Below are positions 11,071 through 15,420 of a DNA stretch of 64,000 bases, one piece after another. The notes beneath the pieces were generated by a model. The model saw only the letters and a program-made list of their open reading frames with translations. It was not told the DNA's origin and ran no database searches. Position numbers and translations under genes: made by a program. The DNA is from Eledone cirrhosa (taxonomy: Eukaryota). Position 1 is the stretch's first letter; every line of letters starts with the position of its first letter. The stretch is from NCBI GenBank assembly GCA_964016885.1, contig OZ024757.1:15066001-15130000 (forward strand), written 5' to 3'.

Positions 11071-13558
11071 ATGGGGACAGATGGCCTCAACATAAAGCCG
11101 CCAAACCGCCATTTTTTCATTAAGGACCTAATATCCGGAAGAGGTTTCCTCGTGGATACAGGAGCCTCCTGTAGTATCTGGCCGGTCCATTGCCTGAAAG
11201 ATACCCCCATAGAGTCATCTGTTACGCTGCAGGCAGTTAACCACTCGTCTATAAAGACGTACGGGCAAATCTCGCTCCCTCTTAAATTCCTAAATCTTCG
11301 AAGGGATTTTAAGTGGATTTTTACGGTTGCCGATTTGCCATATCCCATCTTAGGAGCGGATTTCCTCCACAACTTATCTTTAACTGTGGACGTCCGTGGC
11401 CAGCGCCTGGTGGATAACATCACCGGCTTTTCAATTCATGGCCAGGAAGCCAATGCCCCAATAATCAGCCCCGTGTTCTTTATCGCTGCCGCTGGTGACG
11501 CTTACCATGCGTTACTGGGTGCTTTCCCGGAGCTCACGGATGGAAATTTTCGAGTCACTGACCCAACACACTCGACCGAACATTTCGTTTCCACCACCGG
11601 TGCCCCAGTGTTTTCGCGTCTACGCCGCTTACCGACGGAAAAATTAAAGGCAGCACGGTCCGAGTTCGACCATATGCTGCAGATGGGCATTATTCGCCCA
11701 TCTACGAGTCCTTGGGCTTCACCGTTACACATGGTGCCCAAGACTTCCGGCGACTGGAGACCCACGGGGGATTATAGGAGGTTAAATGTCATGACCGTCC
11801 CGGATAGGTATCCCATTCCCCATCTCCACGATTTTGCATCTTCACTGCAGGGGTGTAAGATTTTTTCTAAGTTAGATTTAGTGCGAGCCTACCCCCAAAT
11901 TCCGGTCAGGAAGGAGGATATTCCGAAAACTGCAATTACAACCCCTTTCGGATCATTCGAATTTTTGACCATGCCTTTCGGACTCAGGAACGCCGCTAGC
12001 ACTTTTCAGCGGTTCATAGAGGTCACGCGTGGTCTGGACTTCGTCTATGCTTACATAGACGATATTCTCGTCGCTAGTTCCTCTCCGGAAGAGCATATGC
12101 ACCACATGCTTCTCTTACTTCGGCAACTTCAGGATTACCGCGTTCGCGTGAATCCTGCAAAGTGTGTTTTCGGTTCCACTTCCCTACATTTTTTAGGCCA
12201 CCTCATCGACGCCGAAGGTATTAGGCCGCTCCCTCAGCGAGTTCAAGCCATACAGGAGTTACCGCCGCCTACTACACTTCACCAGTTGCGTCACTTCTTA
12301 GGCCTAATCAATTTCTATAGGCGTTTCATTCCTCATTGTGCTAATTGGCTATCTTCCCTTACTGACATTTTAAAAAAACGTCGTAAGAAGAATGAAGACA
12401 TTTCCTTGACACAAGGACAGCTTCAGGACTTCCAGTCTGCCAAGACAGCCCTCGCTAGTTCTTCTTTGCTAGCCCACCCGGTACCAGAGGCCAAGCTTTC
12501 GCTTTGTGTTGATGCATCTGATACCGCTATGGGAGCAGTTTTACAGCAGTCTTACGCTGAAAACCAACAACCTTTGGCATTTTTCTCGAGGAAGTTGAAA
12601 CCAGCAGAAACGCGTTATAGCACGTTTGGGCGGGAATTATTAGCCATATATCTGTCGGTGAAACATTTCTCTCATATCCTTGAGGGGAGAAATTTTACGG
12701 TTTTTACCGACCACAAACCGTTGACCTTCGCTTTGAGGGCCAAAGCCGACAGATATTCGCCCAGAGAGACAAGGCACCTGGACTACGTTTCACAATTTAC
12801 AAACGATATCCAGCACATTGTCGGCTCGCACAACATAGTTGCAGACGCATTATCACGTTTGCCAATTAGCTCCATCTCGTCATCCCAGGATATCGACTTA
12901 GGTCGTTTAGCTGCAGACCAACCTGCACTCCAATCGTTGGACACTCTTTCTACTGAATTTGCGACTTGCATTTTCAAATATCTGCCCTTGTCCACCACCG
13001 ACAGGCAGATTCTTTGTGATGTATCCACTGATGCGCCACGACCACTTGTTCCTGAGACTCACCGTCGAATTGTGTTCCTGGCTCTGCACAACATTTCTCA
13101 TCCAGGATCTGCTGCCACAGTTAAACTCATAACAGCCAGATTCTTCTGGCCTAATATGAGGCGCGACATTGCTGCTTGGTGCCGTTCCTGTATCGCTTGC
13201 CAGAAATCGAAGATCTATAGACACACCCGGACTCCACTGGGTACTTTCACCACTCCAGATGCTCGGTTCCAACACATCCACATTGACATCGTTGGACCTT
13301 GGCCATTCAGCAGTGGATATTCCTACATATTGACGTGTGTCGATCGTTTTTCGCGATGGCCTGAAGCCATCCCTTTACAAGACATGACTGCTGAGACTGT
13401 AGCACGTGCCCTGGTATCAGGGTGGATTACCCGCTTTGGGGTACCAACTACACTCACCACAGACCGCGGTAGACAATTCGAGTCCCACCTCTTCTCTGAG
13501 CTCACCAAAATAATTGGAGCTCAACGGATTCGGACCACAGCCTATCATCCTGCTTCAA
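11071..13558 (+). CDS. Gypsy pol: protease, RT, RNase H, integrase truncated after TTAYHPAS
   Basis: [62 protein letters not shown] (H..SH..C..CQ), HIDIVGP, TDRG. The catalytic E is missing. Confidence 0.93.
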
Positions 13559-14575
13559 AGAACAACGCTATATGTCACAAAAAAGAGTGGAACGCGTTCA
13601 ATCACTTCCACATCATCTGGCATAGCATGCAACGACCGGGCGAAAACCAAAGATTAAAGTATATACGGAGTCTGTATAAGAAAGCCACGAAACTCAACAG
13701 ATACATCCCTGAATGTCAGAGGATTAAATTCCCGTCTAGCATGGCGAATTACTTTTGCCAGCCTCCGAGGTACATTCTAAGAAAAGGGCAGGACAGTACC
13801 AACGAACTGTTCACGGAGTGGTGCATGCAAGAATACATAGCAAAACCAGAAATAGCACCTAAACCAACAGTAGAAGAACCAACATTCAAATCCAAATCAG
13901 GAACGACTCTCACTTTATTCAACTACTTGTCCTATATATTCACATCGAAAAGATTTCGAAGCGAACAGGATATGAAATCGCATTGGTTGCACAGACCAAA
14001 TAATGATAATTTGATGTGAGCTATCTCGCACCCTATGTATGACTCGGTGATGAAAAAAGTGTTAGAGTGTGAGAAACTGAAAAGTTTAAACCAAGGCTTC
14101 AAGGAGAAATTCGAGAATATGAATTGGGAATATTTTGATAATAATAAGAATTATATGGACAGGGATGTATCATTGAAAATATTTAAATCTATCCTATTAA
14201 CGCAAGACATCAATGAACAAAGTATAGTAACTACGGTGTGGGAGTTACTAACACAAAAAAAAACTAAAAGGAACCTGTTAGTATTGAGAGGAATACCAAA
14301 TACCAGTAAATCGATGGTAGCCAGAAGTATTGCAGATATGTTCACGCCTGTCTCCACAATACAAGGTACAAGCAGCTTCCCATTTCAGAACTTAATAAAC
14401 GTGGAAATAGGTCTTATCGAAGAACCTAATTTTAACCTAGAAACGCTACAAACGTTTAAGAAACTAGCTGAAGGAGTAGACACGGAAGTAGCAATTAAAT
14501 TCAAGCAAGACCAAATAGTACATCGAACACCATTAATAATAACTAGCAACAATAAATTTGATCAAAATGCGCCTT
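13559..14575 (+). pseudogene. Endogenous parvovirus-like NS1/Rep, 5' part (HUH endonuclease + SF3 helicase)
   Basis: HFHIIWH (HUH motif) and downstream Y residues. An in-frame TGA at 14017-14019 is followed by Walker A-like LRGIPNTSKS, FPFQ, Walker B GLIEEP, B' FKKLAEG..VAIKFK and motif C PLIITSNN. Composition shifts sharply to A-rich. Confidence 0.85.
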
Positions 14576-15420
14576 TGTAACAAATAACACTTCCTTCTCC
14601 AAGCCTAGATTCGAAACCGAATCTAAGAATTCTCGCTGTTCAAAATCACGAAGACAGGCGCCAAAGAAAGGTTTTTCTTTGTCCTGTCAAAAAGTGATTG
14701 ATCGCCTCCCTTTGACCTACGACCTCAGCTAGGTCAAGCCAAAGTCAAATTGACCGAAGGACGTAGAAACCCTGTTGCGGTATGTCTATCATTCTAGCCA
14801 CCGCAACATTATATATATGAGAGTCAAGGGAAACCCGACACAGAGAGACCTGGCAAAGCAAGCGTAATGAACTACTGTGTCAGATGAACTACACACACAC
14901 ACTCACACAAACATATTCATTCTAACACACCAGTTCCACAAATGTATCCTGGTTCTATTTTCTTACATAACCACAAATTAAGTTCCAGTGAAATAAATTA
15001 TTTTTATAATGAATCCATTCACCTACTTGTTCATTTTTCCGGCATACACATGCCTTATCAATATTTCACCATTATACACACACAACCACTACTTTTGGTG
15101 ACCCCGTAAACGAATTGCGGCCTTCCTTTGAACCAGCTTCACCAACCAAACTGCATTTGGAAACAAAAACAGAACTGAGAATTCCGCGAACACAATGGCT
15201 CTCCCAGAACAGAATGCAGCGGCGAACACATCTATCGACATGGCATTCCAAGCGGCAGTTACTTTGAGAATTCCCCCATTGTGGACACACGACCCTGCAT
15301 TATGGTTTTACCATATAGAGGCCCAGTTTTCTTCTAACCGAGTAAACTGCGATGCGTTCATTTTTCCGGCATACACATGCCTTATCAATATTTCACCATT
15401 ATACACACACAACCACTACA
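14576..15420 (+). mobile_element. Internally deleted Gypsy LTR element inserted into NS1
   Basis: TG...CA termini; 4-bp TSD CCTT (14572-14575 / 15421-15424); 5' LTR ~14576-15092; PBS TGGTGACCCCG at 15096-15106; gag start LRIPPLWTHDPALWFYHIEAQF (15195-~15350); last ~65 bp of the LTR repeated at 15356-15420. Confidence 0.88.

Follow-up and report, generated by a model that had tools for sequence, protein, structure and literature searches.

The window analysed here, 64,000 nt of the Eledone cirrhosa genome, contains a cut-off fragment of a Gypsy retrotransposon that is joined in frame, at position 13559, to a broken integrated parvoviral NS1 gene. The features on either side of the joint are collected in Table 1.

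Table 1. Features around the Gypsy/NS1 joint (positions are those of the window)
Feature	Positions	Strand	Basis
Non-LTR retrotransposon copy (zinc fingers, RT), cut off at 10226	6478–10226	+	RVT_1 E 5.9e-32 (Pfam)
Gypsy family A, internal fragment lacking LTR, PBS and 3′ half	10226–13559	+	Match to full copies
gag, 1-nt frameshift after 10794	10266–11059	+	DUF7041 E 3.1e-15
pol: PR, RT, RNase H, integrase ending just short of the final DDE residue	11044–13557	+	Pfam, copy comparison
Gypsy/NS1 joint, in frame; 2–4 letters fit both sides	13556–13559	+	Alignment with Gypsy copies
NS1, first part: truncated nuclease, in-frame TGA, SF3 helicase	13560–14575	+	Pfam, alignment, structure
Gypsy family B in NS1: LTR, PBS and beginning of gag, then an internal deletion and the final 65 bp of the LTR	14576–15420	+	
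NS1, last part: frame change near 15464–15471, stop 15827–15829	15421–15829	+	tblastn against sibling NS1 residues 430–567; nucleotide sibling matches
Viral 3′ non-coding end: AATAAA 15852, ATTAAA 15878, hairpin 15902–15944, terminal-repeat motif 15974–16012	15830–16039	+	

The Gypsy fragment and its truncated pol gene

The family A fragment meets, with an overlap of 1 nt, a non-LTR retrotransposon copy that we take to be R2/NeSL-like. Among the relatives of the latter that were listed, five of nine reach 10226 and then run on into common sequence that is missing at this locus. The Gypsy fragment is 96.8–97.8% identical to full copies, which have a PBS and paired LTRs of 428–440 bp. The LTR pairs are 96–99% alike in five copies, and the family is young and probably active. 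Compared with 27 copies, the fragment has 32 private differences over 3334 columns. No flanking LTR, PBS, PPT or target duplication was found for it, family A matches at this locus being confined to 10226–13559, and neither an LTR nor the 3′ half of this copy occurs from −50 to +64 kb.

At the gag frameshift, six of the seven copies that cover the site have one more letter, and the reads agree with the frameshift. The pol frame is open from stop to stop over 11044–14019 and, from the ATG at 11071, specifies 982 amino acids (11071–14016). The natural start of pol is probably a different one, given the overlap with gag at a GGGAAAC heptamer (11047–11053; present too in copy L031), which we take to be a −1 slippery site. 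Pfam domains follow each other in Gypsy order: RVP (weak, E 0.026), RVT_1, RT_RNaseH, Integrase_H2C2 and rve. An earlier reading made from the sequence alone (the sequence-only reading) had described this 982-aa PR-RT-RNaseH-integrase frame as breaking off before the catalytic Glu. Both the domain order and the copies bear this out: the latter match until 13559 only and continue there into a helix that bears the catalytic Glu five codons beyond this point. This pol is missing 211 codons, its integrase DDE is incomplete, it carries a 3-nt deletion near 12020, and the gag that precedes it is not open.

The private changes in pol comprise 12 nonsynonymous and 5 synonymous ones (ratio 0.76, p 0.58 against neutral), as compared to 13 and 29, respectively, for the variants common to three or more sequences. 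The decay thus appears neutral, with changes so few that weak selection would be compatible as well. In the 5′ part of gag, where only about seven copies could be compared, the private changes number 4 nonsynonymous to 8 synonymous.

The parvoviral gene, its interruption and its relatives

The parvoviral identity of the sequence downstream of the joint, together with the HFHIIWH motif, the TGA at 14017–14019 and the SF3 motifs named in the sequence-only reading, was confirmed. Parvo_NS1 (Pfam) matches 14020–14577 with E 1.4e-16, and AAV Rep40 (E 2.6e-5) and B19 NS1 were also matched. The part before the stop is less readily classified: Pfam and PDB sequence searches with 13561–14016 alone gave no nuclease family, and the HUH assignment is made on account of motif conservation and a sibling structure model. 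The His-x-His (13603–13611, within HFHIIWH at 13603–13623) and the Tyr (13750–13752) belong to a His-Phe-His and a Tyr that are invariant across 18 aligned sequences; in the sibling model (pLDDT 90.7), the former lies on strand 84–90 and the latter on helix 129–134. In a VIA comparison with the nuclease model, the top matches were to the nuclease of AAV5 Rep (Z 5.6; rmsd 4.2 over 120 aligned residues) and to RepB of pMV158 (Z 5.5; rmsd 3.2 over 103), both tied with unrelated chains, and Foldseek returned no match to this model at E 0.001. With the sibling NS1 model, Foldseek supports a Parvo_NS1-type SF3 helicase, at 12–24% identity with named NS1 structures, and the structural matches are spread over several parvovirus subfamilies.

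The gene is broken. Some 67 residues are missing from the N-terminus of its nuclease (model residues 2–68, which form two strands and one helix), a truncation not mentioned in the sequence-only reading; a near-invariant codon of Walker A is changed at 14305, and, the in-frame stop aside, NS1 deviates at 2 of 121 conserved columns. The sequence-only reading let the gene end at 14580, but the stop at 14578–14580 belongs to the LTR of a second Gypsy element of family B; NS1 resumes at 15421, and the virus extends to about 16039. The 4-bp target duplication CCTT (14572–14575 and 15421–15424) shows that family B was inserted by its own integrase. Its internal deletion has a 2-nt overlap at 15356–15357, 8 of its 782 columns are private, and a contig of run X4 spans 14575/14576 without a single difference. 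The viral and Gypsy parts are similar in apparent age (Fisher p 0.70).

The viral 3′ end is common to an unlinked insertion (L146) as far as 16039. Signs of a terminal palindromic or inverted repeat occur at 15902–16012, the full terminus not being delimited: the hairpin stands out against 200 shuffles (z −5.5), and in siblings the reverse complement of the terminal-repeat motif precedes the capsid gene. The viral part extends 130–160 nt past a candidate poly(A) signal, whose site is predicted rather than mapped. The sequence of another repeat starts at about 16060.

The integrated parvovirus family is large and includes at least two divergent lineages. Its members carry the capsid gene before NS1 on one strand; PF08398 (VP1 phospholipase domain) was detected in three of the seven sibling frames scanned, and a sibling capsid is similar to that of the Penaeus monodon metallodensovirus (E 8e-9). 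The locus under study has no capsid gene. We consider that a parvovirus family with this gene order merits a separate description. Siblings are often near-whole viral genomes, and some are perfect inverted dimers, an arrangement typical of replicating DNA. Contact with Gypsy was seen at 3 of 43 parvoviral loci, and at the other 40 nothing Gypsy-like occurs within 300 nt, in a count whose Gypsy library misses the LTRs of unrelated families.

A second Gypsy/parvovirus chimera lies 40 kb upstream of the joint. There, an LTR with PBS and UTR has been inserted in another NS1 and cut off, about 20 viral nt being lost, and related Gypsy sequences flank the virus on both sides in the right element order (integrase; 3′ UTR–LTR). 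The integrase joints of the two chimeras are 117 nt apart.

The joint and its possible origins

The overlap at the joint depends on the sibling NS1 used for comparison: it amounts to four letters with three of eight siblings, two with another three and none with the last two (in two of the ten siblings, the site was not locatable). Beside the joint, the integrase and three of the eight siblings have a word of 8–11 nt in common, as occurs in 0.5% or less of random pairs, which suggests that pairing may have been guided. Scans for tandem and direct repeats gave no further information on the joint. A genome search for other copies of the integrase–NS1 junction, advised by the sequence-only reading, returned this single match to the exact joint, even with up to two mismatches allowed. 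No Pol similarity exists among 165 database NS1 relatives; 131 candidates were screened for relatives that are longer and fused, with one NS1 of ordinary form as the outcome (weak evidence), and the best 150 of 1814 profile matches measure 798 aa at most and include no fused relative. A contig of run X1 (13530–14203; 674 bp, 4 differing letters) crosses the joint with 30 Gypsy and 644 viral letters, one Gypsy letter short of the 31 letters demanded by the tool used, and X1 possibly stems from the very sample that was assembled. The matches listed from runs X5 and X6 include no piece over the joint; this was not counted as evidence. No RNA data set was listed as carrying the sequence.

We interpret the joint as a DNA-level microhomology join over the 2–4 matching letters, the in-frame read-through being a likely functionless by-product, with a probability of roughly 0.62. 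The locus as a whole is likely an accidental DNA join within a pile of decaying mobile elements, and not a working hybrid gene. Short overlaps recur locally, at both ends of the family A fragment (1 nt and 2–4 nt) and at the internal deletion of family B (2 nt); such overlaps arise from RT template switching as well as from DNA repair. The viral part does not stop at the likely poly(A) signals but reaches the terminal repeat, which is indicative of viral DNA rather than mRNA. The upstream case, in which LTR, PBS and UTR entered an NS1, implies that insertion plus deletion can yield a joint between Gypsy-internal sequence and NS1.

In the order of events that we propose, the first step would be the integration of parvoviral DNA, with its right terminal repeat, among closely packed mobile elements of like orientation. 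The 3′ half of Gypsy A and the 5′ part of the virus would next have been lost, through a deletion or through the repair of a break using viral DNA as a patch, and the remaining Gypsy and NS1 ends left in register. Gypsy B would subsequently have entered NS1 and lost its own middle, all three pieces having presumably drifted since, by ~1%. A Pol–NS1 protein is not expected, since there is no LTR promoter and the frameshift in gag comes before the point at which translation would slip into pol. The locus would then be a clean example of an in-frame virus–transposon "fusion gene" that chance has made among piled-up repeats, and of how to distinguish one from a working one.

A tentative possibility, short of even odds, concerns the predicted retention of the locus rather than its origin and can be combined with a DNA join: the accidentally joined pieces would be kept in a one-strand, piRNA-cluster-like archive, from which an antisense transcript would silence Gypsy and virus. 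From −38.6 kb to +5 kb, Pfam matches occur in 13 of 25 plus-strand frames and in none of 19 minus-strand frames; the Gypsy, NS1 and non-LTR pieces described here are likewise on the plus strand, and a 45-kb stretch holds two parvoviral insertions. However, these frames are not independent (tandem copies and antisense shadows; about eight separate insertions), and minus-strand elements are present just outside the interval. A 39-bp repeat unit at 40997–41409 presumably resembles octopus SINE tails.

That a Gypsy RT switched between parvoviral and Gypsy RNA, the hybrid cDNA being integrated and its LTRs removed by later deletions, we regard as unlikely. Virus and Gypsy are co-oriented, a prerequisite for RT capture; the short overlap and, in some siblings, the adjoining shared word would suit a switch, as would a young, probably active family A, the like apparent age of the parts and the upstream chimera, which is bracketed by Gypsy integrase and 3′ UTR–LTR in element order. 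Virus–Ty3/gypsy hybrids have been demonstrated (passages of PMC6797480), and a shrimp parvovirus insertion has been tied to a retrotransposon (passages of PMC8507497). On the other hand, a DNA virus integrates without needing RT, and Gypsy neighbours are missing at 40 of the 43 sibling loci. At the present joint, Gypsy does not stand on both sides of the virus: no Gypsy 3′ end follows, and the other repeat begins. The sequence-only reading had suggested a one-off capture of an NS1 transcript by a Gypsy RT: one-off it is, the joint being single-copy, whereas transcript capture by RT is disfavoured because of the apparent poly(A) overrun, the missing Gypsy A 3′ end and the nature of the siblings, inverted dimers included.

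It is more doubtful still that a Gypsy family repeatedly switches template to parvoviral RNA near its integrase end and so feeds a one-strand piRNA cluster, a heritable small-RNA memory against a DNA virus, of which both chimeras would be independent products. If RT capture were true, the model of retrotransposon-made antiviral memory in mosquitoes would come to cover a DNA virus and a host other than an insect, and the pair of adjacent chimeras would allow testing by small RNAs.

An assembly error is very improbable: the joint borders on a high-copy repeat and its crossing contig has the shortcomings given above, but that contig does lead from Gypsy into 644 viral letters, the neighbouring joints are bridged, one of them by a run of another study, and the Gypsy copy bears private changes and indels of its own. 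Hardly credible is a functional chimeric element or gene with a rolling-circle Rep in place of the integrase core, as also put forward in the sequence-only reading, for although the joint is in frame and the nuclease His-x-His and Tyr are kept, there is one copy, devoid of LTR, PBS or PPT, with a frameshifted gag, a neutral-looking pol, a nuclease without model residues 2–68, an NS1 with a stop, a Walker A change, an LTR insertion and a frame change, and no fused relatives found. Single-copy occurrence with neutral decay had been named in the sequence-only reading as refuting a functional chimera. A genome search for further copies that keep this joint and its frames was negative; the Rep-for-integrase chimera is largely refuted.

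Comparison with known systems

Searches of open-access literature turned up no account of a fusion between Gypsy integrase and parvoviral NS1, nor of any parvoviral insertion in a cephalopod. Endogenous parvoviral or densoviral elements are known from tapeworms (PMC6880638), flatworms (PMC13055364) and vertebrates (PMC9707805). According to passages of these sources, they resemble the Eledone insertions in their many NS1 and VP copies, truncations, frameshifts, terminal-repeat remnants and concatemers in repeat-rich regions. The Eledone family differs in having one copy in frame with a Gypsy integrase and siblings with the one-strand capsid–NS1 order and inverted dimers; its lineage is 12–24% identical to named NS1 structures.

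The IHHNV insertion in shrimp (DQ228358; PMC8507497) is likewise an invertebrate parvoviral insertion joined directly to a retrotransposon. In the passages concerned, its RT origin is the authors' hypothesis, and the retrotransposon family or a coding fusion is not given. In Aedes, vDNA hybrids of virus and LTR-retrotransposon, and EVEs in piRNA clusters, similarly place viral fragments among Ty3/gypsy in co-oriented elements, but, in the passages describing them, derive from RNA viruses and need RT (PMC6797480). The virus here is a DNA virus, its terminal repeat is included, and no Gypsy sequence lies 3′ of it. As in Ty3/Gypsy elements (Metaviridae), gag is followed by PR-RT-RH-IN, and full family copies have paired LTRs and a PBS; this copy is without both LTRs, PBS, 3′ UTR and 211 pol codons.

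In Teratorn, a mobile element together with viral genes reportedly forms a single unit that is intact and kept. The herpesvirus U94 is described in a passage of PMC9707805 as a working Rep capture. The Eledone locus resembles both in presenting a mobile element and viral genes as one unit, and differs from them in that theirs are intact and kept, whereas the joint here is single-copy and broken on both sides.

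Structure and copy number of the Gypsy/NS1 join

The 982-aa frame that the sequence-only reading had described as running from Pol into NS1 is present in the sequence, and the Pfam domains agree with it: protease (weak), reverse transcriptase (RT), RNase H, integrase zinc finger and integrase core, in the order of Gypsy elements. The SF3 part is, as had been proposed, a parvoviral NS1, its best solved relatives being AAV Rep40/68 and B19 NS1. The NS1 end formerly placed at 14580 is only apparent, the gene being interrupted there by a second Gypsy family, Gypsy-B. The pieces and their ends (Table), including the duplication around Gypsy-B, are directly observed, as are the lesions and the fact that the joint occurs once.

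Table. Features of the window and related stretches (L numbers, stretches from elsewhere in the same genome, G000; C18, the window's contig)
Feature	Position	Remarks
Gypsy-A piece	10226-13559	5′ joint at 10226
Fused frame	11044-14019	stop to stop; 982 aa from ATG 11071
Gypsy-A/NS1 joint	13556-13559	2-4 letters compatible with both sides
In-frame TGA	14017	relatives read on
Parvo_NS1 match	14020-14577	E 1.4e-16
Gypsy-B	from 14576	LTR, PBS, gag start, internal deletion, last 65 bp of LTR; CCTT on both sides
NS1, second part	15421-15829	frame change; stop at 15829
Viral tail	to ~16039	common to an unlinked insertion
AT-rich satellite arrays	57641-63508; 29088-30168; 48555-49551	units of 27, 60 and 30 bp
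Tandem non-LTR elements	-21,000 to 10,226	L130-L128 and window
Upstream Gypsy/parvovirus chimera	L131:8416-10000 and L130:1-3142	G000:C18 ~15,034,400-15,039,150; 27-32 kb before window
NS1-derived tandem arrays	L227:1454-4489; L219:3654-4674	108-bp unit in L227
Stretches listed with capsid before NS1	L136-L147, L057, L058, L063, L064, L070, L044

In full copies of Gypsy-A, the family of the Pol part, the paired LTRs measure 428-440 bp and are, in five copies, 96-99% alike. The window's copy lacks the LTR, the PBS, the 3′ UTR and the last 211 pol codons, and no further pieces of it occur from 50 kb upstream to the window's end. At its 5′ joint, it overlaps by 1 nt with a non-LTR element, itself cut off there. 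In families Gypsy-A and Gypsy-C, LTRs start with TG, apparently end with CTAAA instead of CA, and are followed by the PBS (L031, L032, L037, L208 and L210).

Over 3334 columns compared with 27 copies, 32 differences are private to the window's Gypsy-A; its gag carries a 1-nt frameshift and RT a 3-nt deletion. Its private pol changes (12 replacement to 5 silent; ratio 0.76) are compatible with neutrality (p 0.58); the other copies sum to 179:98, variants common to at least three sequences stand at 13:29, and the 5′ part of gag gives 4:8 on ~7 copies, a figure not separable from sub-lineage divergence. Since pol overlaps gag at GGGAAAC, which we take to be a −1 slippery site, translation probably does not start at ATG 11071, and the usual entry into pol would be closed off by the gag frameshift.

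In the 3.0-Gb genome, 928 candidates were found for 13300-14700; among the 40 scored, 37 match the Gypsy side only and end at 13559-13560, two match the viral side only, and one is the window itself. The other genomic copies of the joint that the first reading had thought worth seeking did not turn up: a 24-letter pattern spanning it has a single match at up to two mismatches. One contig of sequencing run X1, which may be the assembly's own sample, crosses the joint with 30 letters of Gypsy, where 31 count as a crossing; the NS1/Gypsy-B LTR joint is spanned, with 0 differences, by a contig that belongs to another study. The join is real, single-copy and decaying.

The viral part and its relatives

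Alignment with the siblings (other parvoviral insertions of this genome) and with 15 of 16 database relatives places the start of the window's NS1 ~67 residues into the protein. In a sibling nuclease model (pLDDT 90.7), an invariant His-Phe-His lies on a strand and an invariant Tyr on a helix; the part missing from the window comprises two strands and a helix. The best structural matches of this nuclease are AAV5 Rep nuclease (Z 5.6) and pMV158 RepB (Z 5.5), modest scores that are tied with those of unrelated chains. Matches of the whole sibling model extend over AAV Rep68 and the NS1 proteins of several parvoviral subfamilies, with identities of 12-24%, which marks the lineage as divergent. 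The window's NS1 departs at two of 121 conserved columns, one of them in Walker A. The viral tail holds AATAAA, ATTAAA and a hairpin (z −5.5); a motif within it recurs as its reverse complement ahead of the siblings' capsid gene, which identifies the region as the right terminal repeat of the virus.

The insertion family is large, with 56 genomic matches to one NS1 query; a second NS1 query has 73, which overlap with the 56, neither figure being a copy number. Both lineages lie side by side at several loci (C12 9.07 Mb, C2 345.36 Mb, C841). The usual parvoviral gene order is NS before VP. Here, 15 of 23 annotated stretches have the capsid gene immediately before NS1 and in the same orientation (one has a reversed fragment, seven are without capsid). 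Both lineages have this order, and the terminal-repeat motif precedes the capsid gene and follows NS1 in sibling insertions; our literature search found no report of this order. Near-identical copies at L142, L143, L144 and L064 (C10, C14, C998, C5; 98-100% protein identity) come with inverted duplications, and in L144 two NS1 ends flank an almost perfect palindrome of 438 nt, which suggests very recent integration of replicating DNA. Elsewhere, short NS1 pieces have grown into tandem arrays.

Origin of the join

We infer the order of events and the enzyme responsible. The join was probably made at the DNA level (probability roughly 0.6), viral DNA and Gypsy-A being joined to each other. This is favoured because the viral template ran 130-160 nt past a candidate poly(A) signal, the Gypsy 3′ end is absent after the viral part, and siblings are often near-whole genomes, some of them inverted dimers. 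Likewise, Gypsy-like sequence lies within 300 nt at just three of 43 loci examined with a library that misses unrelated LTRs (two in the window's neighbourhood, one marginal at 299 nt), and nearby joints have the same cut-and-join pattern, such as another NS1 that still contains an LTR together with its 5′ UTR. An 8-11 nt word is common to the integrase beside the joint and three of eight located siblings (at most 0.5% of random pairs), and absent in the other five.

Capture of an NS1 transcript by a Gypsy RT switching templates between the two RNAs, which the sequence-only reading had put forward, draws on the common sense orientation of both parts, the youth of the Gypsy-A family, the similar apparent ages of the parts, and the upstream chimera, where Gypsy sequence stands on either side of the virus and the joint in integrase lies 117 nt from the window's; the viral tail beyond the poly(A) signal and the missing Gypsy 3′ end speak against it, and we consider it unlikely. 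A scenario in which RT repeatedly captures the RNA of a DNA virus and adds it to a small-RNA cluster of one strand orientation is more doubtful still. The working integrase-to-Rep chimera also envisaged earlier is highly improbable, failing on its single joint copy, on the lacking LTR and PBS, and on lesions in gag, pol and NS1. Pol sequence occurs in none of 165 database relatives of NS1.

Neighbourhood and known systems

Over 44 kb, Pfam hits fall in 13 of 25 plus-strand and 0 of 19 minus-strand frames, which are not independent; this bias hints at a putative piRNA-cluster-like archive. Every zinc-finger/RT non-LTR element of the tandem run (two families) has plus orientation; the run also contains a piggyBac-like transposase (DDE_Tnp_1_7), and a Helitron lies upstream of it.

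The upstream chimera carries a virus of the other lineage (helicase 27% identical to the window's) and reads: gag and integrase fragments, capsid part, inserted LTR with PBS and 5′ UTR, NS1 (509-aa open frame; Parvo_NS1 E 1.2e-16), Gypsy 3′ UTR and LTR. The virus replaces ~520 nt of Gypsy, and a DNA search of the genome gives one copy. RT capture is more plausible for it than for the window's join and, with the capsid-before-NS1 order, it is a stronger lead than the fusion itself.

Our literature search turned up no Gypsy-integrase/NS1 fusion, although supplements may list such insertions; PMC11357303 and PMC2757015 contribute nothing specific. Published integrated parvoviruses of tapeworms (PMC6880638), flatworms (PMC13055364) and vertebrates (PMC9707805) show truncated copies, terminal repeats and concatemers, and a shrimp parvovirus insertion is tied to a retrotransposon (PMC8507497). 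The RT-made hybrids with Ty3-gypsy described from Aedes (PMC6797480) derive from RNA viruses, whereas the viral part of the window comes from a parvovirus. Endogenous parvoviral elements joined to LTR retrotransposons are a kind already known, of which the window's join is a further example.
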